From contig CAVPOM010000018.1 of assembly GCA_963707025.1 (NCBI GenBank), positions 12,507-76,506 of the forward strand: a DNA stretch of 64,000 nt. Direction: 5' to 3'. The stretch is from an uncultured Verrucomicrobiae bacterium (GTDB taxonomy: Bacteria; Verrucomicrobiota; Verrucomicrobiia; Limisphaerales; Palsa-1400). The translations under genes and the position numbers were made by a program. Below the pieces are notes generated by a model. That model searched no databases. It saw only the letters and a list, made by a program, of their open reading frames with translations, and had not been told where the DNA came from. Positions 30,031 to 54,056 of the stretch are shown here, in pieces; within the stretch, counting starts at the first letter, position 1; each line of letters begins with the position of its first letter.

Positions 30031-30684
30031 ATGTCCGATATCTTTCCAAAGTGGACCAACCGGTTGCCGCGCAACATTATTATTGGGGCGGTGCTGGTGG
30101 GTTCCGGGGTGCTGGCCGGGGTGACCTATTATTTCACGCCGAAGTACACGCGGGTGGGTTATGAACCGATCCAGCCGGTGGCCTTTGCCCACAGCGTGCA
30201 TGTGGAGCAATTGGGGCTGGATTGCCGCTATTGCCATAATACGGTGGAGAAATCCTGGTATTCCAACATCCCGGCCACGTCCACCTGCATGAACTGCCAT
30301 GTCCAGGTGTTGAAGGACGATGCCCGGCTGGCGCTGGTGCGGGAAAGCGCGGCCTCGGGCCAGCCGATTCCCTGGGTGCAAATCCACAAGATGCCCGATT
30401 TTGTCTATTTCAACCATTCCGTCCATGTCAACCGGGGTGTCAGTTGCGTGGAATGCCACGGGCAGATCAACCAGATGGACGAAGTGTATCATGCCAAACC
30501 TTTGAGCATGTCCTATTGCCTGGACTGCCATCGCGACCCGACGATGCGGGTTCGTCCGCTGGCCGAGATCACGCATTTGGATTGGAAACCCGAGTCCGCG
30601 GCCAGGCAAAGGGAGGATGGCGAAAAGATGATGCATGATTGGCGGATTCAATCCTTGCAAACCTGCTCGACTTGTCACCGATGA
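30031..30684 (+). CDS. actA: Alternative complex III subunit ActA, pentaheme cytochrome c
   Basis: N-terminal TM segment. Five CxxCH motifs are present: CRYCH, CMNCH, CVECH, CLDCH and CSTCH. Confidence 0.85.
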   Translation: MSDIFPKWTNRLPRNIIIGAVLVGSGVLAGVTYYFTPKYTRVGYEPIQPVAFAHSVHVEQLGLDCRYCHNTVEKSWYSNIPATSTCMNCHVQVLKDDARLALVRESAASGQPIPWVQIHKMPDFVYFNHSVHVNRGVSCVECHGQINQMDEVYHAKPLSMSYCLDCHRDPTMRVRPLAEITHLDWKPESAARQREDGEKMMHDWRIQSLQTCSTCHR

Positions 30685-33600
30685 AAAACCCACCCACACC
30701 CGCACCGGCAGGCCCGGCCTATTGGCGCAGTTTGGACGAACTGGCGGACACGCCGCAGTTCCGCCAATGGGTGGAAAAGGAGTTTCCGGCCGGGGCGAGC
30801 GAATTGTTTGATCCGGTGACGCGGCGCAATTTCGTCAAGATCATGTCGGCGTCCTTCCTCCTGGCGGGCCTCGGGGCGACGGGCTGCCGCCGGCCGGTGG
30901 AGAACATTTATCCGTTCGCCAAGATGCCGGAGAATTATGCGCATGGCCTGCCGCAGTTTTTTGCCACGGCCATGCCGTCCCGCCGCGGGGCGGTGCCGCT
31001 GGTGGTGAAATCCAGCGACGGGCGCCCGACCAAAGTGGAGGGCAATCCCGACCACCCGGACAGCAACGGCGGCACGGACCCGTTTGCGCAGGCGTCGGTG
31101 TTGAGTCTTTATGATCCCGACCGGGCCCAACGCTACGCCAGGAACGGGAGCCTGAGCACCAAGGCGGCGGCGTTGGATGCCTTGGCCGCGCTGGCCGGGA
31201 AGTTTGGGAACGGGGACGGGGTGGCGTTTCTCATGGAGCAAAGCAGCTCGCCTTCCCGCGCGCGGCTGCAACGGATGGTCAGCGAAAAATATCCGAAGGC
31301 GCGCTGGTTTGTTTATGAGGCGGTGGATCTGGATGCGGCGCGCATTGCGGCCTCGCTGGCTTACGGCATCCCGGTGGCGCCTTATTACAACCTGGAAAAG
31401 GCGGAAAAAATTCTGGCGCTGGATTGTGATTTTATCGGCACCGAGGAAAATGCGACGGTCAACATCCGGCGCTTCGCCCAGGGCCGGCATGTCGCGGGCA
31501 AGGACGACCCAATGAGCCGGCTCTATGCGGTGGAGAGCTTGTTCACCTTGACAGGGATGAACGCGGACCATCGTTTGCGCGTCGCGCCCAGCCTGATGGT
31601 CGCGGTGGTGGCGCGGATGGCGCTCAATATCCTGCCTTCCGGCGATTGGGACGCCAAGCTGAAGGAATTGTCCGCCCCGGCGCAGGGCTTTGATGATTGG
31701 ATCGTGCCTTGCGCGAAGGATTTGAAGGCAAGCGGCGGGAAAGGTTTGGTGATGGGCGGTTATCGTTTGCCGCCAGCGGCCCATTTGCTGGTGCTGGCGA
31801 TGAACGAGGCTCTTGGTGCGGTGGCGGATCACACGATTGAATTTCATGAAGTTCCCGAGGCAACCGAAGAGGACATTAGCATCCTCGTGAAGGCGCTGGG
31901 CGCTGTCCAATTCCAGACTTTGATCATGTTGGGCGGCAATCTGGCTTACAATGCTCCGGCGGACTTGAACTGGTCGCAGGCGTATCCAGGGGGGAAACTC
32001 CAAAGGACAATCGTGCGGCTCGGTTATTATGAAGATGAAACGTCGTGCCCCCCTCCTCCAACGATGACGAGTCAATGGGATTTGCCGATGGCGCATTTTC
32101 TGGAGTCGTGGGGCGACGCGCGCACGGCCAACGGAACTTTGGTCCCGATTCAGCCGCTGATCGAGCCGCTGTTTGACGGGCTGACGGAATTGGAAGTGCT
32201 GGCGATTCTGGCGGGCGCGGAAAAGACCAAGCCTTACGAAATCGTGCGCGAAACATTTCGCCTCCTTGGCGGCCCCGGCGAGAATGATTGGCGGAAGTTT
32301 TTGCACGACGGTTTCCTCGCAGGCAGCGCGGCGGTGCCGGCCACTGTACAGTTCAACGCCAAGCTGCTCGCGCCGGTGTTGGATTTGTTGAAGCCCGCGG
32401 CCGCGCCCGGACCGGGCAACTTGGACGTCGTTTTCCATCGCGATTCCAAGATGGACGACGGACGGCATAATAATAACGGCTGGTTGCAGGAATTGCCGGA
32501 CCCGATCACCAAGCTGACCTGGGACAACGCGATTTTGGTAAGCCCCAAGACGGCCCATGAGCTGAAGCTCGCGCCCGATGAGCAGAAGCGCGACCAGACG
32601 CAGCGATTTTACGACCAGGTGGTGGAAATTCAATTGGGCGAGCGGAGAGTGCGCGGCACGATCTGGGTCCAGCCCGGCATGGCGGATTATACCGTGGGGC
32701 TGGCGCTGGGATATGGTCGCGTGAAGACGGGGCGGATCGGGCGCGGTTGCGGCTACAACGCGTATAAAGTGCGGACGACCGACGCCATGCATTACGGGTC
32801 GAACGCCAAGTTGACGAAAGTGGGCACGGCGTATCAATTGTCCACCACGCAGAGCCATTGGAGCATGGAAGGGCGCGCGCCGGTGCGGGAAGCCAATCTG
32901 GAGGATTTTCGCAAGCAGCCGGATTTCGCGGCGAAAATGGACTTGGAAAAGCCGCCCACCATAGCGCCGATGTATCCCAACCCATTCGACACCACCAAGG
33001 CCAAAGGATTGCATCAGTGGGGCATGGCCATAGATTTGAGCAAATGCGTGGGATGCTCGGCCTGCATGGTGGCGTGCCAGAGCGAGAACAACGTCCCCAT
33101 TGTGGGCAAGGAAATGGTGGGCAAGAGCCGCGAGATGCACTGGATACGGATTGACCGTTATTATTCCGGTGTGGGCAAGAATCCCGAGGATGATCCGCAG
33201 GCGGTGGTCCAGCCGATGCTCTGCCAGCATTGCGAAGCCGCCCCGTGCGAGAATGTTTGCCCGGTCAATGCCACCTCGCATGATGACGAAGGGCTGAACG
33301 TGATGGTGTATAACCGCTGCGTCGGCACGCGTTATTGCTCCAACAACTGCCCCTACAAAGTGCGCCGCTTCAATTTCTTTGATTACAACCGCCGCCCGCT
33401 GGACAAACTTTACGACAGCCCGCTCGATCCGCTCAACCGGAAGGACGGCAAATGGGAGTTCCTGCGATGGTGGGACAATCCGGACCGGGGCAACCTGCCG
33501 GAAGACCAGTGGCAACTGGTGCGCATGGTCAAGAACCCCGACGTGTCGGTGCGGATGCGCGGGGTGATGGAGAAATGCACCTTCTGCGTGCAACGGCTGG

Positions 33601-33968
33601 AGCAGGCCAAGATCGCCGCGAAGGTCAAGGCGCGCGCTTCGGACCACATCCGCTTGTCGGAGAAGGAAGGGACCATTCCCAGGACGGCGTGCCAGCAGGC
33701 CTGTCCGGCGGAGGCGATTGCCTTTGGCGACATTTTGGACAAGGAAAGCACCGTGAGCAAATGGAAGGACAATCCGCGCAATTACACGGTGCTGGACGTT
33801 CTCCACACCAAACCGCGCCTGACTTACCTGGCCAAGGTGCGCAATCCCAATCCCGAGATGCCCGATTACAAGCAGCACCCCGCGCCTTACAGCTACGACG
33901 ACTATTCCAAAACCATGGGCCGGCCCGCCTTGGAGGAGGGTGAGGCGACTGAGAAAGGAGCCCGGTAA
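30681..33968 (+). CDS. actB: Alternative complex III subunit ActB (molybdopterin-oxidoreductase-like B1 fused to 4Fe-4S B2)
   Basis: The ATG at 30681 overlaps the actA stop (ATGA). TAT-like TRRNFVK is present. Fe-S cluster motifs are [49 protein letters not shown] and [10 protein letters not shown]. Confidence 0.9.
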
Positions 33969-35458
33969 TGGCGGACGCCACTCCAGCCCCGATGTTGACG
34001 CAGGACGCGCCGCTGGTGGTGCAGGCGCCGCCCGTGGAGTTGGAACGCGAGCCGCTCGTGGCCAACGGCCACGGCATCGGCTGGCTGTCCGACACCATAG
34101 CGGGAGTGGCCGAAGGCAAGCCCAAGTTCTGGTGGTGGATTTGTTTCACCATCAGCGCGACCATGATGACGGTGTGCTTTCTGTGCATACTATATCTGAT
34201 GTCCACCGGGGTGGGGGTCTGGGGTGTGGCGCACCCGGCCATGTGGGGCTATGCCATCGTCAATTTCGTGTGGTGGATCGGCATCGGCCATGCCGGAACC
34301 CTGATCTCGGCGATTTTGTTTCTGCTGCGGCAGAAATGGAGGACTTCCATCAACCGCGCGGCCGAAGCGATGACCATCTTCGCCGTGATGTGCGCCGGCA
34401 TCTTTCCTCTCATCCATATTGGGCGAATCTGGCTGGGCTACTGGCTGTTCCCCATCCCCAATGCCAACGGCATCTGGCCGCAATTCCGCTCGCCCCTGAT
34501 GTGGGACGTTTTCGCCGTCTCCACCTACTTCACCGTCTCGGTGCTGTTCTGGTACATGGGATTGATACCCGATCTGGCCGTGATGCGGGACCGGGCCACG
34601 ACGAAAAGCCGGAAGTTCGGCTACGGCCTCTTCGCCCTGGGCTGGACCGGCTCCAACCGGCACTGGAGCAATTATGAGAAGGCCTACCTCATTCTGGCGG
34701 GCCTGTCCACGCCGCTGGTGCTCTCGGTCCATTCCATCGTCTCGCTGGATTTTTCGGTCTCGCAAATCCCCGGCTGGCACACCACCATTTTCCCCCCCTA
34801 CTTTGTGGCGGGGGCCGTTTACTCCGGTTTTGGGATGGTGCTGACGCTGCTGGTGCCGCTGCGGCGGATGCTGAAACTGGAAGACATCATCACGGTGCGG
34901 CATGTGGAGTTGATGTGCAAAGTGACCCTGCTCACCGGCTCCATCGTGGGCTATGCCTATGTGATGGAGTTTTTCATCGCCTGGTACGGGGGCAATCCTT
35001 ATGAGAAATACCTCTTTCTCCATGAGCGCGCGGCGGACCCGTTCATCATTGCCCCGCTCTACGGAATCGAGCCGGCGCCCTACTGGTGGGCCTGGTGGAT
35101 GATGATTATCTGCAACGTGCTGGTGCCGCAGCTATTCTGGTTCAAGAAGGTGCGGACCACCATGATCCTGGTTTTCATCCTGTCCATTTTAGTCAACGTC
35201 GGCATGTGGTTCGAACGATTTGTCATCATCATCGTTTCGTTGACCCGTGAATTCATTCCGGCCAACTGGGGATATTACCGTCCGTCGTGGGTGGATATTT
35301 TGCAATTTTTGGGAACGTTTGGCTTGTTCTTTACGTTCTTCCTGTTGTTCCTGCGCTACGTCCCGTTGATCGCCATTGCGGAGGTCAAGGGCGTGACGCC
35401 GCAAGCCGACCCGCACCATCCGCTGGGCGGGGCGAAAAGCGGAGGGCACCACCCATGA
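33968..35458 (+). CDS. actC: Alternative complex III subunit ActC (NrfD/PsrC-like quinol-interacting membrane subunit)
   Basis: Polytopic membrane protein of NrfD type, sitting directly after actB with a TAATG overlap. Confidence 0.9.
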
Positions 35459-35988
35459 GCGGACGGCCTTACGCGATCCTGGCGGAATTTGAAAGCCCGG
35501 CGGCCATCCTGCAGGCGGCGGACAAGGTGCGCGGGGAGGGATACCGCAATTGGGACGTTTTCACCCCGTTCCCGATCCACGGCATGGACCGGGCGATGGG
35601 GATCAAGAACTCCAAAGTGGGCTGGTTTTCTTTCATTGGCGGCGTGACGGGGTACGCCACGGGGATGTTGATGATCTGGTTTATGAACACGGTGGATTAT
35701 CCGATCGTCATCGGCGGCAAGCCGATGTTCAGCCCGTTTTCCGCTTTTCCGCCGTCCTACGAATTGACGATTTTGTTCGGGGCCTTCGGGGCGCTGCTGG
35801 GGATGCTGTTCCTCAACCGGCTGCCCCGGCTGCATCATCCCCTGCTCAAGCACGGGCGGTTCAAGCTGGCCAGCCACGACCGTTTTTACGTGGTGATCGA
35901 AACCAACGATCCCAAATACGCCGAGCCGGCGACCCGGCAAATGCTGGAGTCGCTGGGGAGCAAGCACGTTGAATTCGTCGAGGAATAA
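35455..35988 (+). CDS. actD: Alternative complex III subunit ActD (DUF3341)
   Basis: [49 protein letters not shown]... matches the DUF3341 pattern, followed by two TM segments. ATGA overlap with actC. Confidence 0.85.
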
Positions 35989-36656
35989 TGCGCTACTTTT
36001 ACCTCATTTTTTTTCTGACCTGCGTGACGGTGATCGGCCTGGCCGGTTTTCGCGGCAGCAAGTCGCGCCAGCCGCCCATTGAGCTGTTTAACGACATGGT
36101 GCGCCAAAACAAGGTGCGCCCGCAGACGCCGAGCGATTTCTTCGCCGACGGCCGCAGTTCGCGGGCGCGGCCCGAAGGCACGGTGGAGCGCAGCCTGCCT
36201 TATGAACTCAACGGCCAATTGGTGCTGGTCAACGGCAAACCGGTTTATCCCTACGAAGAGGCCCCCATGAACACCGGGCGGATGACGGGCACGACCAATT
36301 TCATCGAAACCGGCCCGCTGGCCATCACGCGGGAATTGCTGGACCGGGGCCAGGAGCGTTATCAGATTTATTGCCTGCCGTGCCACGGCCCGGCGGGAGA
36401 CGGCAAGGGGATCACGGGCAAATACGGCATGGTGAGCATGGCCGATTTTCACGCCCAGCGCCTGGTGGAGATGAAGGACGGTGAGATTTTTAATACCATG
36501 ACGGTCGGGAAATTGCCGCTCATGCCGGCCTACGGGGCGCTGCTTGGGGTGGAAGACCGCTGGGCGATCATCTCCTACATCCGCGCCTTGCAACGCAGCC
36601 AGTTGGCGACGGTGGAAGACGTGCCCGAGGCGAAACGGGGAGAATTTAAGAAATGA
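35988..36656 (+). CDS. actE: Alternative complex III subunit ActE, monoheme cytochrome c
   Basis: N-terminal anchor, a single CLPCH haem site and a distal Met region (MPAYG). TAATG overlap with actD. Confidence 0.85.
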   Translation: MRYFYLIFFLTCVTVIGLAGFRGSKSRQPPIELFNDMVRQNKVRPQTPSDFFADGRSSRARPEGTVERSLPYELNGQLVLVNGKPVYPYEEAPMNTGRMTGTTNFIETGPLAITRELLDRGQERYQIYCLPCHGPAGDGKGITGKYGMVSMADFHAQRLVEMKDGEIFNTMTVGKLPLMPAYGALLGVEDRWAIISYIRALQRSQLATVEDVPEAKRGEFKK

Positions 36657-36708
36657 GATTAAGATTAAGAAAAGAGATTAAGATTAAGATCAAGATTAAG
36701 AAATAAGG
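36656..36708. repeat. Hexamer-repeat element, single arm (locus 4), filling the actE-actF spacer
   Basis: gattaagattaagaaaagagattaagattaagatcaagattaagaaataagg starts at the actE stop codon and ends 8 nt before the actF ATG. Confidence 0.85.
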
Positions 36709-36716
36709 CCAGGATT

Positions 36717-37988
36717 ATGAACAAGGACACTCCATCCTCATCGGTTGCGCCGCTGGATTTGGCCAAATGGCGGCATGTGCCCGTGATCTTGATGGCGGCG
36801 GGCGGGATCGGGGCGGGGCTGGGCGCGGCGGCCTGCGGGAGCCGGCAGTTCGCCTTTTCCTGGCTGGTGGCCTTCATGTTTTACTTGAGCTTGTGCCTGG
36901 GCGCCTGGTTTCTGGTGATGGTGCATCATTTGTTTGACGCAAACTGGTCGGTGCCGACGCGGCGGTTTTGCGAACACCTGGCCTGTCTGGCGGGCTGGCC
37001 GATGCTGCTGCTGTTTGTCCCCATTGCCGTCCTGGCGCCGCGCCTCTATGAATGGATGAACGAGCTGCGGCATCCGGATCATGCCTTGGCGGCCAAATAT
37101 CCGTTGTTCACCATGAAGGGTTTTTATATCGTGGCGGCGGTTTGCTTCGGCGTCTGGTGGCTCTTTACCAACCGTTTGCGGCACTGGTCGCTGCAGCAGG
37201 ACAAGACGGGCGCGGCCCATTGCATGCGCCGCATGCGGTTTTATTCCGCCCTGGGCATCATCCTTTTTGCGGGGACGCTCACCCTGGCCGCGATCGTGTG
37301 GATGAAGGGGCTGATGTATGAATGGGCCTCGACCATGTACGGGGTCTGGTATTTCGCGGCGAGCGTCTGGGTGGCGCTGGCCACAGTGTATGTCATTACG
37401 CTGATCTTGCAGCGCACGACGGCGTTGCGGGATGTGGTGACGGAAAAGACGTATTACATGATTGGCTCGCTCTTGTTCGCCTTTACCGTGTTCTGGGCCT
37501 ACATCAGCTTTGGGCAGTACTTTATCGTCTGGAACGCGAACATGCCGGAAGAGACCTTCTGGTACGTGCTGCGCGAAAAGGGGACGTGGTGGTTCACGGG
37601 GGCCATCATCATCATCTTCGGCCATTTCTTCCTGCCCTTTCTGGCGCTGCTGCGGATAGATGTGAAACTGAAGCTGGCGGCCATGCTGCCGTTGTGCGCC
37701 TGGGCCTGGCTCATGCACCTGGTGGACGTGGAGTTCCAAGTCATGCCCAGCCTGCATGAGAACGGGGTATTCACTTTCACCTTTCCCTTCCTGACGGCCA
37801 GCCTGCTGGTGGACTTGGCCTGCCTGATGTTCATCGGCGGATTCCTCGCCAAACTTTTTCTGTGGTCGCTCAACCGGCATCCCGTCTATCCCTTGCAGGA
37901 CCCGCGCATGGCGGAAGCTCTGGACGTTTATGTGCCGCCGGCCAGCGCCGCCGCCATTATTCCCGGTCCCGGGGTAAAAGAACTATAA
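36717..37988 (+). CDS. actF: Alternative complex III subunit ActF (second NrfD-like membrane subunit)
   Basis: Polytopic membrane protein, 423 aa, in the position expected for ActF. Confidence 0.85.
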   Translation: MNKDTPSSSVAPLDLAKWRHVPVILMAAGGIGAGLGAAACGSRQFAFSWLVAFMFYLSLCLGAWFLVMVHHLFDANWSVPTRRFCEHLACLAGWPMLLLFVPIAVLAPRLYEWMNELRHPDHALAAKYPLFTMKGFYIVAAVCFGVWWLFTNRLRHWSLQQDKTGAAHCMRRMRFYSALGIILFAGTLTLAAIVWMKGLMYEWASTMYGVWYFAASVWVALATVYVITLILQRTTALRDVVTEKTYYMIGSLLFAFTVFWAYISFGQYFIVWNANMPEETFWYVLREKGTWWFTGAIIIIFGHFFLPFLALLRIDVKLKLAAMLPLCAWAWLMHLVDVEFQVMPSLHENGVFTFTFPFLTASLLVDLACLMFIGGFLAKLFLWSLNRHPVYPLQDPRMAEALDVYVPPASAAAIIPGPGVKEL

Positions 37989-38002
37989 ATGATAAATGAA
38001 CC

Positions 38003-38371
38003 ATGAGCACTGAATCCATCCGCGGAAAATGCGGCCAGGGCCTGACCGTGCTGGGGGTGGCGGGAGCGTTTTTAGTGATGGCCTGGCTGGTCTGGCTGAT
38101 GCGCGCCTACACGCACCCGCCCGCCCTGGCTGAGGCCCGCGCCGTGGAGCGGCTGAAGATCAAGGCCGAGTTCGACGCGGCCAACGCCCCGCTGCTCAAC
38201 GGGTATGACTGGGCCGACAAGGAGAAGGGATTTGTGCGCATCCCGGTGGAGCGGGCCAAGGAATTGATCTTGCAGGAATGGCAGAATCCGGCGGCGGGCC
38301 GCTCCAATCTGACCAACCGGGCGGCCAGGGAATTCGCCCCCGCCGCCGTGGCGAAAAACCCGTACGAGTAG
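38003..38371 (+). CDS. Small single-TM protein in the ACIII cluster (possible accessory subunit)
   Basis: 122 aa with TM segment LTVLGVAGAFLVMAWLVWLM. The gap to actF is 14 nt. No family recognised. Confidence 0.6.
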   Translation: MSTESIRGKCGQGLTVLGVAGAFLVMAWLVWLMRAYTHPPALAEARAVERLKIKAEFDAANAPLLNGYDWADKEKGFVRIPVERAKELILQEWQNPAAGRSNLTNRAAREFAPAAVAKNPYE

Positions 38372-38434
38372 CGGCACAGAATTATAAATGATAAATGAAG
38401 AGGGCGAATGTTGCTTTGGGTGGTGCTTCCCTCT

Positions 38435-38609
38435 CTTAATCTTAATCCTAATCTTAATCTTAATCTCATTCGTGCAATCGGTAATCAGAATTGGCTTTGA
38501 TCAAGCCCACGAGCAGCGAAACGATGATATACTTGCAGCTTTTCGTGGTCGAAGACTCGATTCACTCGGATTAGGACGATTAAGATTAAGATTATGATTA
38601 AGATTAAGA
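38435..38609. repeat. Hexamer-repeat element, inverted arms flanking a 101-nt unique core (locus 5)
   Basis: Left arm 38435..38467 (CTTAAT/CCTAAT units), core 38468..38568, right arm 38569..38609. The stretch 38576..38603 is identical to 54025..54052 (28 nt). Confidence 0.85.
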
Positions 38610-38625
38610 CCAGGAGCAGATACCC

Positions 38626-40098
38626 ATGAGCGTGACTGAGGCACCAGCGGCAACGGCGGCAACGGCGGCTGGCCCGCAGGTTTCGAGGACCCAACTCGAA
38701 ACTTCCGGGGCGGTGCCGCTCCTGGGCCTGTTCGCCGGCGCGGCGGTCTGGCTCCTGCTGGGTTTGCTGCTGGCGCTGCTCTGTTCGCTCAAACTGCATG
38801 CCGCCGGCTTGCTGGCCTCCGGGCCGATGTTCACTTATGGGCGCGTCCACGCCGCGGCGGACACGGCGCTGCTCTATGGCTTTGGCGTTCCGGCCGCGCT
38901 GGGAACCGGGCTGTGGCTGCTCTGCCGCCTGGGGCGGACGCGATTGGCGGCGCCGGCGGTGGCCGCCGTGGGAGCGCTGGCCTGGAATGCGGCGGTGGCC
39001 GCGGGTCTCTGGGCCATCCTGCGCGGCGGCGGGACCGGCTACCAAGGGTTTGAGATGCCGGGGGCCATCGCGCCGGTTCTGCTGTTGTCGTACCTGCTGA
39101 TCGGAATCTGCGGGGTCGTCACCTTTGGGCAGCGGGAGGCGGGGCCGCTTTATCCGTCGCAATGGTTCGTGCTCGGGGCGCTTTTTTGGTTTGGGTGGAT
39201 TTTTTCCACGGCGGGGCTGCTGCTGCTGGGCGCGCCGGTGCGCGGCGTTCTCCAGGCCTTGGTCAACTGGTGGTATGAGCATAATCTGGGCACGGTGTTT
39301 TTTGGGTTTGCCGGGCTGGCTTCGATTTTTTATTTCATCCCCAAACTGACCGGGCGGCCGCTGCACAGTTATTATCAGGCGGCGCTGGCGTTCTGGATGC
39401 TGGCGCTGGCGGGCAGTTGGGGCGGAATTCCCGGCGGCGCGCCGCTGCCGGGCTGGCTGGTCAGCGTGTCCGTGGCGGGGACGGTGCTGACGGTCATCCC
39501 CATCGCGGCGGTGGCGATGAATTTGTATTTGACGGTGAGAGGGGAGGCGCTGGCGCGGGAGGCCTGCCCCAGCCTTCGTTTCACCTGCGCGGGCCTGATT
39601 TTTTGGGTGATCGCCAGCGCGCAGGAGGTGGCGGGGGCGCTGCCGTCGGTCGGGGCGCTGACCGATTTCACCTGGTTCACCACGGCGCAACGGGACCTGT
39701 TCCGCTACGGTTTCGTGGGGATGACGATGTTCGGGGCGATTTATTACATCGTGCCGCGGCTGGCCGATGCCAAGTCCGCCGCGCCGGACGGACTGTGGAA
39801 AGGGTGGTTAAGCCAATGGCATTTCCGGCTGATGCTGGCGGGGGTGGTGATTGGATACATGGCCTTGCTGGTGGCGGGCGTCTGGGAGGGAGTGGAGTTC
39901 CAAAGCCCCGCCCATTCGTTCGCGGCGGTGATGAGGGGCACGATGATGGCGCTGCGCCTGAGCACGCTGGGTCCCCTGTTGCTCACGCTGGGGATGATCG
40001 CCTTTCTGCTGAATTTTGCGCTGCTGCTGAAAGGTTGCTGCGCCCGCTGCCGCCGGGAAAGATGGGGCGGCCGGGAGATGCGAAAGGGGGACGCATGA
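38626..40098 (+). CDS. CcoN-like (cbb3 oxidase subunit I-like) membrane protein lacking most metal-ligand histidines
   Basis: Colinear similarity to CcoN: FTYGR...LLYGFG, LYPSQWFVLGA, NWWYEHNLGTVFFGFAGLASIFYFIPKLTGRPLHSY, LTDFTWFT...YGFVGMTMFGAIYYIVPR, SQWHFRL. There are only six His in 490 aa. The CuB HH site reads GGIPGG and the haem HxH site reads TAQRD. Confidence 0.8.
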   Translation: MSVTEAPAATAATAAGPQVSRTQLETSGAVPLLGLFAGAAVWLLLGLLLALLCSLKLHAAGLLASGPMFTYGRVHAAADTALLYGFGVPAALGTGLWLLCRLGRTRLAAPAVAAVGALAWNAAVAAGLWAILRGGGTGYQGFEMPGAIAPVLLLSYLLIGICGVVTFGQREAGPLYPSQWFVLGALFWFGWIFSTAGLLLLGAPVRGVLQALVNWWYEHNLGTVFFGFAGLASIFYFIPKLTGRPLHSYYQAALAFWMLALAGSWGGIPGGAPLPGWLVSVSVAGTVLTVIPIAAVAMNLYLTVRGEALAREACPSLRFTCAGLIFWVIASAQEVAGALPSVGALTDFTWFTTAQRDLFRYGFVGMTMFGAIYYIVPRLADAKSAAPDGLWKGWLSQWHFRLMLAGVVIGYMALLVAGVWEGVEFQSPAHSFAAVMRGTMMALRLSTLGPLLLTLGMIAFLLNFALLLKGCCARCRRERWGGREMRKGDA

Positions 40099-40868
40099 AC
40101 AACGGGCCGATGCTTTATTTGGGATTGTTTGCCGCGATGGCGATTTCGTGGGTAACCTTTGTACTCGGCCCGCAGGTGCAAATGGCCGGCCTGCTGCCCG
40201 CCCGGACGGTGGGGTCGCTGCCGGTCAGTTATCCGAACACCCCGCCCGGCCTGGCGCGGCAGGGGGCCGAGGTGTACCGGGCCTGCGGGTGCGTCTATTG
40301 CCATACCCAGCAGGTCCGCCCCGAGGAGCTGGGCTCGGACTTGGCCCACGGCTGGGGCATCCGGCGGAGCGTGGCGCATGACTACATTTATGATCGTCCG
40401 GTCCTGCTGGGCACGCAGCGGGTCGGGCCGGACCTGGCCAATGCGGGGTTGCGCATGGATGCCATGGCCGTGCTGGTGCGGCTGTGGGATGCCCGCACCA
40501 TCAATCATCTGGACGCCGCCCATTCCATTATGCCGTCCTACAAGTATTTGTTTGAAGTGCGCAAAATCGGGCGGATGCCATCGCCCGACGCCCTGGTGGT
40601 TGCGCCGCAATTTGCGGCGGCGCCAGGTTATGAGATTGTGCCGCGGCCGGCGGCGCGCGCCCTGGCGGCGTATGTGGCGAATATGCGCCAGGAGCCGTAT
40701 CTTTTTGAAGCACCGCCGCCGCCGGGTGCGATCAACACCAACACGCCGGCGGGAGGAACCAACGCGCCGGCCGGCGGGACCAATGCGCCGGCGGGAGGCA
40801 CCAATGCACCCGCGGCGGGCAGCGGAGCGCCCGGCCTGCCTGGCGGCACGAATGCGGCCAAACCGTAA
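40095..40868 (+). CDS. CcoO-like monoheme cytochrome c subunit (cbb3 subunit II-like)
   Basis: ATGA overlap with the upstream gene. TM anchor, then GAEVYRACGCVYCHTQQVRP (CxxCH), RRSVAHDYIYDRPVLLGTQRVGPDLANAG and MPSYKYLF. The C-terminal tail carries three PAGGTNA repeats. Confidence 0.8.
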   Translation: MNNGPMLYLGLFAAMAISWVTFVLGPQVQMAGLLPARTVGSLPVSYPNTPPGLARQGAEVYRACGCVYCHTQQVRPEELGSDLAHGWGIRRSVAHDYIYDRPVLLGTQRVGPDLANAGLRMDAMAVLVRLWDARTINHLDAAHSIMPSYKYLFEVRKIGRMPSPDALVVAPQFAAAPGYEIVPRPAARALAAYVANMRQEPYLFEAPPPPGAINTNTPAGGTNAPAGGTNAPAGGTNAPAAGSGAPGLPGGTNAAKP

Positions 40869-40884
40869 TCCGCCATCCGCAACC

Positions 40885-40933
40885 ATTAAGATTGAGAATG
40901 GAGATTAAGATTAGGATTAAGATTAAGATTAGA
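40885..40933. repeat. Hexamer-repeat element, single arm (locus 6)
   Basis: attaagattgagaatggagattaagattaggattaagattaagattaga lies between the CcoO-like stop and the cytochrome c start. Confidence 0.85.
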
Positions 40934-40950
40934 ATGCAATCCGTCACGCC

Positions 40951-41577
40951 ATGAACCAGAATCCTCCAGAGCCAGCCGCCGCTGTGGAACGGGATGAGCC
41001 TGCCGTCGGGCCGTCGGCTGTTCCCATCTGGCTGATTCTTCTGCTGGGCTTGCTGGTTTACTGGGGATTGAATTATGTCAATGAGCACGGCGGCTGGTTC
41101 AATGCGCAAGTTTATGAGCCGTTCACCACCTATGCGGAAGTGGCGCAATGCCAGCCGCACAATCCGGAAGGTGACTATCTGGCGTTGGGCGAGTCGGTGT
41201 TTAAAGAATCCTGCATTCTGTGCCATCAAGCCAATGGCGCGGGCAAGGAAGGCCAGTTCCCGCCGCTGGCCGGGTCGGACTGGCTGAATGCACCGGGGCC
41301 AAACCGGATCGTCCGCATTGTTTTGAACGGCCTGACCGGGCCCATCCGGGTTGAAGGAGGTCCCAACGGCCCGGTCGGCCTCAATGCCACCATGGCGCCG
41401 CTGGGAGGCACTTACACCGATGAGAAAGTGGGGGCGGCCTTGACCTACGTGCGCCAGCAGTGGGGCAACAAAGCATCGAAGATCACGCCCGATCAGGTCA
41501 GAACCATCCGGGAAGCGATCAAAGCGCATCCCGCGCCGTTCACGCCGGATGATTTGTTGAAGATTCCGGTGCAATAA
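40951..41577 (+). CDS. Membrane-anchored class I monoheme cytochrome c
   Basis: TM segment IWLILLLGLLVYWGL. Haem site CILCHQANGAG, then PPLAGSDWL and a distal MAPLG. Confidence 0.8.
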   Translation: MNQNPPEPAAAVERDEPAVGPSAVPIWLILLLGLLVYWGLNYVNEHGGWFNAQVYEPFTTYAEVAQCQPHNPEGDYLALGESVFKESCILCHQANGAGKEGQFPPLAGSDWLNAPGPNRIVRIVLNGLTGPIRVEGGPNGPVGLNATMAPLGGTYTDEKVGAALTYVRQQWGNKASKITPDQVRTIREAIKAHPAPFTPDDLLKIPVQ

Positions 41578-41641
41578 GAATAGTGAATTGAGAATTGAGA
41601 ATAGTGAAGTTTCTGAATTCTCAATTCTACATTCTCAATTC
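41578..41641. terminator. AT-rich imperfect hairpin built from GAATTGA-type repeats, between convergent genes
   Basis: gaatagtgaattgagaattgagaatagtgaag-tttctg-aattctcaattctacattctcaattc, with core stem GAATTGAGAAT/ATTCTCAATTC. It lies between the cytochrome c stop (41577) and the M20 peptidase stop (41635). Confidence 0.5.
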
Positions 41642-43008
41642 ATCTTTCCCAGCCGGCGCCAAAGGAGGGCGCTCATGCGCGAGCCTTTTTCGTAGCAATC
41701 CAGGTTGAATTTTTCGTTGGGAGAATGGGCGTTGTCATCGGGCAGGGCCAAACCCAGGAGCAAGGAATCGGCGCGCAGAACTTTTCTGAACTGGGTGACG
41801 ATGGGAATGGAACCGCCTTCGCGGATGAGAATGGGTTCGCAGCCAAAGGCTTCCCTGAGGGTGGCCAAGCCGGCCTGGGCCAGCGCGCCGGAGGGGGAAA
41901 CCAGATACGGCTCGGCGCCGTGTCCCGCCTCGGCTTGCAAACGCACGGTGGGCGGACAGATTTTTTTGAGCTGCTTGAGAATCGCCTTGCGGATGCGCTC
42001 CGGGTTTTGCTCGGGCACCAGGCGAAAGGTCAGCTTGGCCCTGGCCCAGGCCGGAATGATCGTCTTGCTCCCCTCCCCCTGATAACCGCTGGTCAGGCCG
42101 TTGATCTCGATGGTCGGACGGGAACTGCGTTGCTCGATGAAATTATAGCCGCGCTCGCCAAACAGCCGCGGCACGCCCAGGGACTTCCGATAGGCCGCTT
42201 CCGTCATGGGAAAGCGGGCCATTTGTTTTCTCTCGTAGGCGGAGAGCGGGGCAACGTCGTCGTAAAAACCGGGAATGGCGACGCGCCCGTTTTTGTCGCG
42301 CAACCGGGCGAGCAACTGGCTCAGGGCCAGGGCGGGATTGTCCACCGTGCCGCCGTAGATGCCGGAATGCAAATCGCGGGCCGGCCCGTGGAGGGTGATT
42401 TCCACGGCGCAGATGCCGCGCAAGGCATAAGTCAGGGCGGGATGATCCAGGCCGGGCATGCCGGTGTCGGAAATGACGACGGCCCGGCAGTGCAGTTCGT
42501 CGTGGTTGGCCAGCAGGAAGCTGTCCAGGCTTTTGCTGCCCACTTCCTCCTCCCCTTCGATGATGAAGGTGAGGTCGCAGGGGAGCGAAGTTTTTGTGGC
42601 CAGATAAGCCTCCACCGCGTTGAGGTGGGCGAGGTTTTGCCCCTTGTTATCGCTGGCGCCCCGGGCGAAGAGGGAACGGCCTTCGAGGCGCGGCTCGAAG
42701 GGAGGGCTTTTCCAAAGGTCAAACGGCTCGGCCGGTTGCACATCGTAATGGCCGTAAATGAGAAACGACGGCTTGGTGGAATGAGGCGAGCGCGGCGTTT
42801 TGGCGACGACGACGGGATGGCCGGCGGTGGGACAAAGGCGGCTTTCCAGGCCGATGTCTTTGCAGTGCGCCACCAGCCACGCGGCGCAGGCGGCCAGATC
42901 GCCGCGATGGGCCGGTTGGGCGGAGACGCTGGCAAAGCGGACGTACTGACAAAGCTGGTCCAGGAAATGCGCCTTCTTTTGCTCCAGATAATTCAAAACG
43001 GCTTGCAT
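41635..43008 (-). CDS. M20-family dipeptidase / peptidase
   Basis: 457 aa with ...FLIYGHYDVQPAEP..., RGASDNKGQ, IIEGEEEVGS and ...HSPNEKF..., which match the M20 metal-ligand blocks. Confidence 0.85.
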   Translation of the reverse strand: MQAVLNYLEQKKAHFLDQLCQYVRFASVSAQPAHRGDLAACAAWLVAHCKDIGLESRLCPTAGHPVVVAKTPRSPHSTKPSFLIYGHYDVQPAEPFDLWKSPPFEPRLEGRSLFARGASDNKGQNLAHLNAVEAYLATKTSLPCDLTFIIEGEEEVGSKSLDSFLLANHDELHCRAVVISDTGMPGLDHPALTYALRGICAVEITLHGPARDLHSGIYGGTVDNPALALSQLLARLRDKNGRVAIPGFYDDVAPLSAYERKQMARFPMTEAAYRKSLGVPRLFGERGYNFIEQRSSRPTIEINGLTSGYQGEGSKTIIPAWARAKLTFRLVPEQNPERIRKAILKQLKKICPPTVRLQAEAGHGAEPYLVSPSGALAQAGLATLREAFGCEPILIREGGSIPIVTQFRKVLRADSLLLGLALPDDNAHSPNEKFNLDCYEKGSRMSALLWRRLGKMN

Positions 43009-43105
43009 AAGTGGTTGCCAACATAAGGGAGGAGGACGGCGTTGTCGAAACGAAATTGCGCCTGGGCGCCTTTCAACTTTTTGGGTCGCTGCTCCTGCTC
43101 TGCTT

Positions 43106-43182
43106 CCTAATCTTAATCTTAATCTTAATCTTAATCTTAATCCTAATCCTAATCCGCTGGCACGAAGCAGATTAAGATTGGG
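43106..43182. repeat. Hexamer-repeat element (locus 8): long left arm, short right arm
   Basis: Eight CTTAAT/CCTAAT units (43106..43153), spacer cgctggcacgaagcag, then attaagattggg (43171..43182). Confidence 0.9.
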
Positions 43183-43240
43183 CGCAGAAACCGCCGCCCT
43201 GAAAATTAAATTGCCCCCTGCGCCCGACGCGCGGCCGGGC

Positions 43241-45038
43241 TTACTTCAGGGCCAGAACTTTGCGCTCGTTGTCAAATTCGAGCGTGACGGAGGAAGGGCC
43301 GATGGCCACGACGGTCGCGCCCGCGGGAAGCCGGTCTTGCGGCCGCACCCGCCTGCCGCTGATGACGGCGGTGGGGTTGCTTTGGGAATAGAAGATGGAT
43401 TGCAATCGCAAATTGGCAAAGGCCAGGTCCTTGGCCGTGGGAGGCGGCGGCGCGGCGGGAGGGGTTTCCACGGGCGCGGTCACCGCAGGGGGAGCCTCCG
43501 CGACTTTGACCGGAGGAGCCACGGGCGCCGGGGCGGGGGCAGGAGGCGTGACGTCGGCGACGGTGACGGGCGGCTTTGCAGCCATGTTCTTGTCCGGTGG
43601 CACTGCCGGCGGCAGCGCCAGGCGCAAGAAAGCTTGTGTGCCCAGGAGGAAAGTGAGAACAAACAGCACGACCAGGATGCCCGGCGTAAACCCAACGCTG
43701 CCGCGGAATGGAAAAAACAGCCGGGAGGGCGGGCGCTGGCTTGACCGGCTTGGGCGCCGGCTTGGGCGCCGGCTTGGGGCTGGCCGCGGCGGGCTTTTTG
43801 GCGGCGCCGCTTTCGCCGGGCCGGGTGCGGGCTTCGGGGCCTTCCAATTCCGGTGTCAGGACCATTTCGCGCCAGTATTGCAACCGGCCGTCCAGTCCCA
43901 AATCGGCCAGGTAGGCCTCATCAACTTGGGCGGGGACATAGCCTTCCTTGTCCGGCTTGGCTTCATAAAGCAGGGCATTGGCCACATGGACGGCGGTCAG
44001 CGGGGTGAAGCGTTTGGACAGGCAGCGGGACGGGTTGTGATGGAGGGCGGCCGCTTCCACCAAGTCCAGCGGCATCCCCCACAGCCCCAGCAAATAGGCC
44101 CCGATCTCGCCGTGACTGGCCCCAAAAATCTGCTTCTCCACTTCCCAGAGCGGGATTTGCTGCCGGCGCGCCAGCGCCTGGGCGCCGCTGTACTGCTCGT
44201 CAAAGTTGGAGGCCAGCACCAGCTTGCCCAAATCATGCATCAAGCCCGCCGTGAAAGCCGACTCGGCCAGCACCGGGTCATCCTGCTGGGTGAAAGCCAG
44301 CCGGCGGCTGATCCGCGCCACCTCCGTGCTGTGGCGCCACAGCCGGTCAATGGAAAAATACACCGGCTTGACTTTATCGTACTGACTGAGAAGTTTGAGC
44401 GTGATGACCATGGACTTGACCGTCTCAAAACCGAGGATGCCGACCGCCTCCACCGGGTCGCTGATCTTGCGCGGCAATCCGAAACAGGCCGAATTGGTCA
44501 CCTGCAGCAGCTTGGTCATCATGGCCATGTCCTTGGCGATGATCGCCCCCACTTCGGCCGTGGTGGTGTGCGGGGATTTCAGGGCGTTGATCACTTCCAG
44601 GTAAAGGGAGGGGACAATGGGGAAGGTGCGCAGACGGGAGATCAGTTCGCGCAGGCTGTCGTTGGTCAGCCAGAGGTCAATGGACAGGGCCCGTTCGATG
44701 GCGTTTTTCAGGGTCTCGCTGTCGCACGGCTTGGTCAAAATCAGGTGCGATCCTTCCACGTCGGCCATCCGGTTTTCCTTGTCCAGCTCTCCGGCCAGCA
44801 GAATGCGGATGGTTTTGGGATATTCGGCATGGACTCGATCCAATAATTCGACTCCCTCGTTGGCTCCCGGCAAGGCGCAATCGGCCACCAGCACATCGCT
44901 GGGGTGGGCGGCCATTTCAGCCAGGGCTTCGTTCGGGCTGGCCACTAATTTGACTGTCCACTCCTTCCCCAGGGCGCGGCCGTATTCCTCCAGCGTGGGC
45001 GGATCAGCGTTCGCGATTAAAATGTGTTTATTGCCCAT
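43241..45038 (-). pseudogene. Response-regulator receiver + HDOD domain protein; the C-terminal TM/GspC-like part is in another frame (frameshift, or a separate small gene)
   Basis: Receiver (HILIANADPP...VLVADCALPG...TKP) and HDOD (...LLQVTNSACFGLPRKISDPVEAVGILGFETV...HDLGKL...). After KPAPALPAVF the frame turns into Arg-rich nonsense. The frame of ORF 43241..43669 reads FFPFRGSVGFTPGILVVLFVLTFLLG...AFANLRLQSIFYSQSNPTAVISGRRV...VTLEFDNERKVLALK. The candidate switch is the T6 run (A6 on the plus strand) at 43712..43717. Confidence 0.7.
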
Positions 45039-53953: not shown

Positions 53954-54056
53954 CTTAATCCTAATCCTAATCCTAATCCTAATCCTAATCTTAATCTCAA
54001 TCCTCAGGATCCCAGAAGGAGATTACGATTAAGATTAAGATTATGATTAAGAATCA
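53954..54056. repeat. Hexamer-repeat element, inverted pair (locus 9)
   Basis: Eight CTTAAT/CCTAAT units (53954..54001), spacer cctcaggatcccagaagg, then a right arm of ATTACG/ATTAAG/ATTATG units (54020..54056). Confidence 0.9.

Follow-up and report, generated by a model that had tools for sequence, protein, structure and literature searches.

In this study, a 64,000-nt stretch of DNA from an uncultured Verrucomicrobiae bacterium (the window) was analyzed, in which arrays of the hexamer GATTAR occupy three gene junctions at the tail of an alternative complex III (ACIII) operon and in the CcoNO-like genes that follow it. We consider it likely that all three loci derive, by decay, from a single family of mobile elements and are passengers rather than a part of the ACIII design. 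The parent element would be a cassette of about 0.5 kb with the termini GCATTTCAC...GTGAAATGC, in which a gene of the PF05635 family (named "23S rRNA intervening-sequence protein") lies in the loop of inverted GATTAR arms. What was found in the genome analyzed (G000; a 6.96-Mb assembly of 18 contigs, 60% G+C) would be only gene-less derivatives, at 134 loci, resembling MITEs (miniature inverted-repeat transposable elements). The segment 38413-38628, upstream of the CcoN-like gene, would be a gutted copy made of two arms and a 112-nt relic antisense to the operon; the arrays at 36657-36708 and 40885-40936 would be single-arm remnants. The elements are proposed to have entered stop/start junctions that originally measured 1-7 nt or overlapped. 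Two of these insertions would date to the common ancestor of four of the six species sampled from the genus, and the third to that of G000 and its congener G003.

The gap before the CcoN-like gene (38372-38625, 254 nt) holds two inverted arms, as the initial annotation had described. On the plus strand these are a left arm, (YTAATC)5.5, at 38434-38466 and a right arm, (GATTAR)n, at 38568-38609, the latter consisting of degenerate units (38568-38577) and a strict part (38578-38607); (GATTAR)n denotes the sense orientation and (YTAATC)n the complement strand. The 101 nt between the arms had been regarded as a unique, non-repetitive core, and this was not borne out. The 112 nt between the arms (38466-38577) have homologs in G000 at C12:158857-158967 (contig and positions; 83% over 111 nt), C12:163964, and C6:745835. 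The minus strand of 38525-38615 matches, at 85%, the left arm and the first 41 nt or so of the open reading frame (ORF) of L070, an intact ORF-bearing cassette copy from another genome, and the minus strand of 38434-38525 matches, at 83%, the last 65 nt or so of the same ORF and the right arm. The internal 271 nt of the 378-nt ORF of L070 are missing from the relic. Its two parts are a 3' end (38467-38525, minus strand, ...LVGLIKANSDYRLHE, with the stop at the arm) and a 5' end (38525-38567, minus strand, read as ...NRVFDHEKLQVY...) with a broken frame; another minus-strand frame of the core reads ...VGLIKANSDYRLHE followed by a stop. Judged by this alignment, the core is the relic of the two ends of a PF05635 gene, lying antisense to the operon. 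The outer flanks of the element are also recognizable. The left one is degenerate (38413-38433, plus strand, gctttgggtggtgcttccctc) and is similar to the left-end consensus ...CATTTCACTTTTTTGGGTGGCGGTTTCC... seen in full-length copies; in the predicted RNA fold it forms a lower stem with 38610-38631. The right one is truncated (38610-38628, plus strand, ccaggagcagataccc); it includes AGGAG at 38612-38616 and abuts the CcoN-like ATG (38626-38628).

It had also been suggested that the core could be a small structured RNA. We regard as very improbable a discrete RNA of the small regulatory or riboswitch kind acting on the operon, for which the strong fold and the 83% match of the core to another locus would speak: the origin of the core from both ends of a protein gene accounts for that conservation, the orientation of the core is flipped between G000 and two congeners (G001 and G005), and the loops of most sister hairpins (7-56 nt) are unrelated. 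A scan of 36000-43500 with Rfam 15 at E <= 1 gave as its sole match a chance small nucleolar RNA, far below threshold.

Gene remnants of this type and intact genes were found elsewhere. The C-terminal relic TGCACGAAGGA abuts 12 of the 177 GATTAR arms of G000 (about 0.1 expected; none in a mirrored control). A DNA search of the taxonomic family recovered intact GATTAR-armed ORFs in four genomes (G020, G021, G042, and G046) and frameshifted ones in G045; intact GATTAR-armed ORFs also occur in many metagenome-assembled genomes (MAGs) of Verrucomicrobiota. In the intact layout, (YTAATC)n is followed a few bases on by the ATG of a 125-codon ORF ending in ...RLHEG-GAT-TAA, the stop codon being the first GAT-TAA unit of the right arm. 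The encoded protein is small and helical, a PF05635 four-helix bundle (65.6 bits against a cut-off of 33.8) which also matches TIGR02436; its only relative in the PDB is Xanthomonas XCC0516 (2gsc).

The association of PF05635 genes with repeat arms extends beyond the GATTAR unit. Within the same-genus comparison set (six genomes, G000-G005), all seven PF05635 genes of G000 and those of the five congeners are flanked by short tandem-repeat arrays, clearly inverted in most, with a unit that differs by cassette (AATGCAA, GGCTAAA, TTGCGGA, ATAAATG, GTGAATA, and others). The flanks of the G000 genes, where readable, are protein genes. At a transketolase junction, for example, the arms are AATGCAA in G000 (C6:41193) and inverted ATAAATG in G003:C205 and G005:C290; the orthologous cassette has different arms in sister genomes, so that arms are replaced over time and a stem is nevertheless retained. 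Of 25 loci with intact cassettes, 16 have the cassette in the orientation of both neighbors and 2 in the opposite one; the cassettes are thus carried on host transcripts.

Arrays were searched for with the unit GATTAAGATTAA, allowing at most one mismatch and taking the chance level from shuffles; the window contains 42 matches versus 0.05 expected. In G000 as a whole, the 177 arms are distributed over 134 loci, comprising 45 single plus arms, 46 single minus arms, and 43 pairs. The initial annotation had treated the repeats as insertions into the operon. They are indeed secondary insertions into a tightly coupled operon, but they are not specific to it. Each of the 43 pairs is arranged as (YTAATC)n-loop-(GATTAR)n, with loops mostly of 7-56 nt, and other paired loci fold strongly as well (e.g., -44 and -52 kcal/mol; z -4.8 and -6.9). 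The loci are overdispersed, and the window lies in the richest 64-kb bin (7 strict loci versus a mean of 1.15). In 31% of arms the GATTAR end has a coding start no more than 40 nt away, compared with 10% of random intergenic positions, and single arms near start codons show a mild sense bias (30 vs 17); with crude gene calls, no bias of single-arm orientation with respect to flanking-gene class was seen. Across the order the family is patchy: of 121 genomes, 20 contain it, and a few of these show blooms.

Terminal inverted repeats (GCATTTCAC...GTGAAATGC) lie outside the arrays at about 13 left and about 13 right ends in G000, and also in ORF-bearing copies; an extended copy has the form ...GCATTTCAC(T)nGGGTGGCGGTTTCC-arms-...CCCAAAAAAGTGAAATGC.... 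Filled and empty sites were surveyed by flank-only queries against three same-genus genomes. Most paired loci are common to G000 and G003. The site C18:181851 is cleanly empty in G003; the additional DNA in G000 extends from one terminus to the other and is enclosed by two CGGCCGG copies. The site C9:296826 is filled in both genomes, and G005 has an intact stop-7 nt-ATG junction there. A pair in G000 (C3:76102) corresponds to a single arm in G003, and at several sites the same gap holds a different hairpin family in a sister genome. Direct repeats were found around some copies. An exact repeat of 14 bp (CTTGAACCTCAGAC) surrounds L098, an intact copy from another genome situated in a bioF-bioA-like junction; repeats of 10 bp with one mismatch are present at C10:212657 and C9:153202 (exact run of 7 bp), and a 7 bp repeat flanks C18:181851. 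An exact flanking run of at least 7 bp was observed in 3 of 10 copies versus 1.7% by chance. Filled and empty sites within the genus, together with putative target duplications in some copies, indicate that the family moves or has moved. The earlier suggestion of a MITE fits the paired element, which is a MITE-like, gene-less derivative of a cassette that has inverted termini and, when full-length, putative target duplications.

Several observations weigh against descent from a mobile cassette. The length of the duplications varies from 7 to 14 bp and some of them lie in GC-rich, low-complexity DNA, and no target duplication is visible at the truncated junction copies C9:296826 and C6:745777. 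At the ActE stop (TTTAAGAAATAA) and at C6:745777 (CTTGATCCTGATCTTAA), the pre-insertion sequence is already similar to a single repeat unit, and microhomology or slippage may have contributed to the insertions. No intact GATTAR-armed gene was found in G000 or its congeners, which are MAGs of 64-92% completeness. The cassette ORF is without a known catalytic motif. Finally, the A/G variants of paired arms are not mirrored (mismatch 0.061 within versus 0.059 between loci; permutation p = 0.70), and they thus provide no fine-scale evidence for selection on the stem. Derivation from a transposase-encoding parent found no support either: the sole ORF of the full-length element is the PF05635 gene. 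The terminus GCGCATTTCAC (at most one mismatch) occurs at 208 sites versus an estimated 110 or so by chance, only 12 of them beside arrays, and no transposase-sized unit with arrays was found among these sites, about half of which are expected by chance.

Some of these observations could be accommodated by microsatellites which had grown in place through replication slippage of a pre-existing seed unit. The ancestral ActE stop region has TTAAGA in all genera, cttgatcctgatcttaa forms the end of the "empty" site of G005 at C6:745777, and array length varies from 13 to 84 nt between sister genomes. We judge this origin to be quite unlikely, given that the unit, the outer flanks, and the gene relics recur at dozens of unrelated loci, that full-length copies have inverted termini and putative target duplications, and that the clean empty site C18:181851 (vs G003) is without a seed unit. 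Slippage does explain the variation in array length after insertion.

Additional repeats were noted in the course of the survey. A very homogeneous subfamily of about 130 nt, catttcagatttttgggttcccctcttaatcttgctc-arms-gcatcgccctcccgcattcggattaagagcaa-arms-gaaagaaaacccaaaaatgtgaaatg, is present in at least nine copies in G000 (C3:175241, C4:269679, C5:65440, C7:87069, C9:153228, C10:212694, C16:117245, C18:542934, and C18:709769), and its homogeneity suggests recent multiplication. A conserved repeat of about 110 nt (ggggcgcatcttgacactgctaccgg.gtcaggcgcaagaa...gtgcgcccgtcctcggg...) lies just past the right end of several GATTAR elements (G000:C4:269790-269880, C18:160190-160300, and C18:543040-543150) and at many G003 and G005 contig ends. 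In-frame (YTAATC)n arrays, read as (P/L)N repeats, occur inside long, well-scoring ORFs of G000 (C7:251029-251058, C7:300025-300048, C3:184374-184403, C7:297273, and C5:31453); one host resembles leucyl-tRNA synthetase (LeuRS; MPQWAGSCWYYLRF) and another, by eye, a UvrA-type ATPase. A GC-rich repeat of about 150 nt in G003 (ccatgaaccctcacctcaccctaaccctctcccctcccatcggatggg...) sits in the left part of two GATTAR hairpins, L166 (G003:C42:35500-36210) and L167 (G003:C77:23550-24150), and in G000 a peptide-like string akin to it, SPLPSDGRGEGQGEVRV, comes after the in-frame array of the LeuRS-like ORF. There are 17 reverse-transcriptase matches in G000. Sixteen near-identical ORFs (open frames of 538-593 aa; e.g., C3:11345-11992, C4:331746, and C18:745571) probably represent a group II intron, and one different reverse transcriptase (C15:110931-111596) has a single GATTAR arm (C15:110158) at a distance of about 770 nt.

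The operon region comprises ActB (30639-33968), ActC (33968-35458), ActD (35455-35988), ActE (35988-36656, stop at 36654-36656), and ActF (36717-37988). These are followed by a conserved small ORF of 122 aa (38003-38371), a CcoN-like gene of the COX1 family (38626-40098), a CcoO-like gene (40095-40868, stop at 40866-40868), and a cytochrome c gene (40951-41577). The neighboring junctions are as tight as had been reported, with overlaps read at four of them (ActB/ActC and ActD/ActE, TAATG; ActC/ActD and CcoN/CcoO, ATGA). Repeats had been placed in three spacers of this operon, and all three are present. In addition to the paired copy described above, the 60-nt ActE-ActF spacer (36657-36716), previously described as nearly all repeat, holds a single plus-strand (GATTAA)n array that runs to about 36708 (36657-36708; Tandem Repeats Finder, 36656-36701), and AGGA is found at 36711-36714, shortly 5' of the ActF ATG (36717). 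The 82-nt spacer between the CcoO-like and cytochrome c genes has the single arm expected, a plus-strand (sense) (GATTAR)n array at 40885-40936.

Gene order from ActE through ActF and the small ORF to the CcoN-like gene is kept across the order. G002, G004, and the other genera sampled have no element at any of the three. The ActE/ActF junction measures 4-7 nt without an insert and carries a sense GATTAR array of 13-84 nt in G000, G003, G001, and G005. The small ORF/CcoN-like junction is 9-15 nt long without an insert (G002 and three genera with a full alignment); it holds GATTAR hairpins in G000, G001, and G005 and a hairpin of a different heptamer in G003. At the CcoO/cytochrome c junction, an ATGA overlap is present in G001, G002, and G004, and the array in G000 and G003 only. 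The comparison with ACIII operons of relatives lacking the insertions, which the initial annotation had proposed, shows junctions that are short or overlapping. The hairpins of G000, G001, and G005 have a common right boundary, gagcagataccc directly followed by ATG, where insert-free relatives have ...cggccATGAGCG. The gene relic in the loop is antisense to the operon in G000 and sense in G001 and G005, as could result from a flip of the segment between the inverted arms. Sister genomes vary in arm family, in loop content, and in the presence of the elements, which argues against a conserved regulatory design.

Other repeats are located in the same operon. Two direct, non-inverted ATAAATG heptamer arrays bracket the conserved 122-aa ORF, one in the 14-nt ActF-small ORF spacer (37985-37999, plus strand) and the other directly after the small-ORF stop (38380-38398, plus strand, in direct orientation to the first). 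The array at the ActF-small ORF junction is present in G000, G003, and G005 and not in G001. At the operon end, between convergent genes, is an inverted GAATTGA-type heptamer hairpin (41578-41641, no strand assigned; -23.6 kcal/mol, z -4.4), which is broadly of the same type as the GATTAR elements but represents another family of arms. Similar GAGAATTGGTCATTGA arms flank PF05635 genes in G002 and G003, and arms of this type flank a gutted hairpin in G005 at the ortholog of window positions 53954-54056. The 3' end of the CcoO-like gene (40737-40819) contains a 21-nt tandem repeat (3.8 copies, TNAPAGG-like), and a trace of an AATCCGC-type array (tccgccatccgcaacc) follows its stop (40869-40884); a similar trace is seen in the coding tail of G001.

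The RNA of 38395-38640 is predicted to fold at -84.4 kcal/mol (z -5.4) into one long hairpin, each side of which measures about 100 nt. The arms of about 30 nt make up its upper stem and the outer flanks its lower stem, which pairs GGAG of AGGAG and the A and G of the AUG. The single arms have no structure beyond that of shuffles (36657-36708, z -0.98; 40885-40936, z +0.82). It had been proposed that the repeats stabilize the message as repetitive extragenic palindromic (REP) elements do, or that they attenuate read-through. A REP-like stabilizing hairpin is inapplicable to the two single arms, as these are unstructured. Attenuation found no support either: no intrinsic terminator (GC-rich stem plus U-tract) coincides with any array, the right arm being followed by gaccaggagcagataccc, and no sigma-70-like promoter match was found in any array. 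Selection of the hairpin and arrays as REP-like post-transcriptional regulators (stabilizers, attenuators, or setters of ACIII/CcoNO stoichiometry) would agree with the occurrence of some hairpin at the small ORF/CcoN junction in G000, G001, G003, and G005, with the sequestration of the Shine-Dalgarno sequence and AUG in the stem, and with the excess of arrays near start codons and its mild sense bias. We nevertheless consider such selection unlikely. The G003 hairpin belongs to a different arm family; the loops of G000, G001, and G005 differ in length, content, and orientation; two genomes of the same genus and all other genera sampled are without the insert; and the element is present at 134 unrelated loci, with terminator-like features absent at the arrays and single arms unstructured.

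If the three loci are passengers, the spacers should not be read as ACIII/CcoNO regulation. Their presence may still affect the operon mRNA. By analogy with rRNA intervening sequences, the paired copy is probably a site for RNase III, for which G000 has one gene. Cleavage in the stem would divide the transcript into an ACIII and a CcoNO-like message, and the downstream piece would begin with an unstructured leader, (GAUUAA)n-AGGAG. An uncleaved hairpin would damp translation of the CcoN-like gene, with AGGAG and AUG buried in the stem. Because the AGGAG is part of the element, the CcoN-like gene now takes its ribosome-binding site from the insertion, where that site is predicted to be held in a hairpin; RNase III may thus be required for expression of the oxidase-like genes in this lineage. 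The single arms would replace translational coupling by an unstructured, A/U-rich spacer and are probably near-neutral.

Several known repeat systems resemble the GATTAR family. REP elements and bacterial interspersed mosaic elements, as well as REP doublets forming hairpins (REPINs) with their REP-associated tyrosine transposases (RAYTs), likewise comprise hundreds of intergenic palindromic doublets, often in operons, with a single-gene, repeat-flanked "parent", and REPs can stabilize mRNA. The GATTAR elements differ in that no RAYT is associated with them, the arms are tandem-hexamer arrays of about 30 bp instead of imperfect palindromes of 20-40 nt, and the flanked gene encodes a four-helix bundle. 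It is barely conceivable that they are REPINs mobilized by a RAYT of the Y1/IS200 type, or arrays for a DNA-binding protein or promoters, as the many intergenic inverted doublets and 10 Y1_Tnp matches in G000 might suggest: none of the 10 Y1_Tnp genes adjoins a GATTAR array (the nearest is 2.5 kb off), the arrays lack sigma-70-like promoter matches, and the gene between the arms in relatives is PF05635 and not a transposase. In genomic behavior, the nearest parallel is with MITEs, which, like the elements described here, are short non-coding multi-copy derivatives of a longer element with inverted termini, filled and empty sites, and RNA hairpins; MITEs also have target duplications, to which the direct repeats around some GATTAR copies may correspond. 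In the present case, however, the parent has no recognizable transposase, the putative duplications (7-14 bp) are not of fixed length, and the arm is mostly a tandem microsatellite.

Dispersed short tandem arrays of comparable kind are represented by the cyanobacterial short tandemly repeated repetitive (STRR) heptamers. Literature searches on STRR/heptanucleotide repeats gave no link of such arrays to the PF05635 family, and the hexamer itself appeared only in unrelated papers. The GGGAATC/GGGGAYT heptamer arrays of Xanthomonas and Nostoc, read as G-quadruplex formers (Rehm et al., 2015; PMC4692102), are likewise dispersed short-unit tandem arrays, single or in inverted pairs. Xanthomonas has 70-75 convergent inverted pairs; the arrays of the two genera are transcribed, differ in length among relatives without changing type, and for the most part occupy gaps between co-directional ORFs near stop or start codons (PMC4692102). 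That report ties the heptamer arrays neither to a PF05635 cassette nor to mobility. In contrast to these heptamers, GATTAR arrays contain at most two adjacent G (at GATTAG-GA joints) and cannot form G-quadruplexes.

In mechanism and gene content, the closest parallel is provided by the ORF-bearing intervening sequences (IVSs) of 23S rRNA in Leptospira and Coxiella. As selfish DNA in an operon the elements of the window are ordinary; they are informative on the spread of intervening-sequence cassettes. More than 130 copies with the same arm, sister genera with intact parents, sites that are filled in some congeners and empty in others, inverted termini, and putative duplications constitute evidence of movement, and both the mechanism of cassette movement and the role of the PF05635 protein become experimentally approachable. 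We tentatively raise the possibility, which we hold to be well below even, that PF05635 cassettes are a general, undescribed class of bacterial mobile elements, of which the classical 23S rRNA IVSs are merely the known tip. Such cassettes would insert at operon stop/start junctions with target duplications of variable length, would bring their own ribosome-binding site for the downstream gene, and would neutralize themselves at the RNA level, the tandem-repeat stem acting as an RNase III site. They might move via an RNA intermediate, as the 7-14 bp duplications, the 17 reverse-transcriptase matches, and the kinship of PF05635 to the Avd cofactor of diversity-generating retroelements could suggest.

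Literature searches on PF05635, TIGR02436, and S23p led to the Coxiella IVS and to no description of operon-borne cassettes. In the IVS of Coxiella burnetii, the S23p ORF lies within a 28-bp stem which RNase III cuts in the middle (PMC4990558). For the PF05635 family, no function has become known since the 1993 Leptospira report (cited in PMC4990558). As in the 23S rRNA IVSs, the PF05635 gene here is carried in the loop of a long inverted-repeat stem: the stem is represented in the window by the predicted fold of 38395-38640 (-84.4 kcal/mol, z -5.4), and the loop ORF by the two ORF ends in the window copy and by intact 125-aa ORFs in relatives. Both ride on a host transcript whose function survives. 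Whereas the IVSs sit in a helix of 23S rRNA, the three loci described here lie between protein genes of an operon; their arms consist of hexamers in tandem, they show inverted termini outside the arms and putative target duplications, 134 mostly gene-less loci of a single genome share one type of arm, and cleavage by RNase III is predicted.

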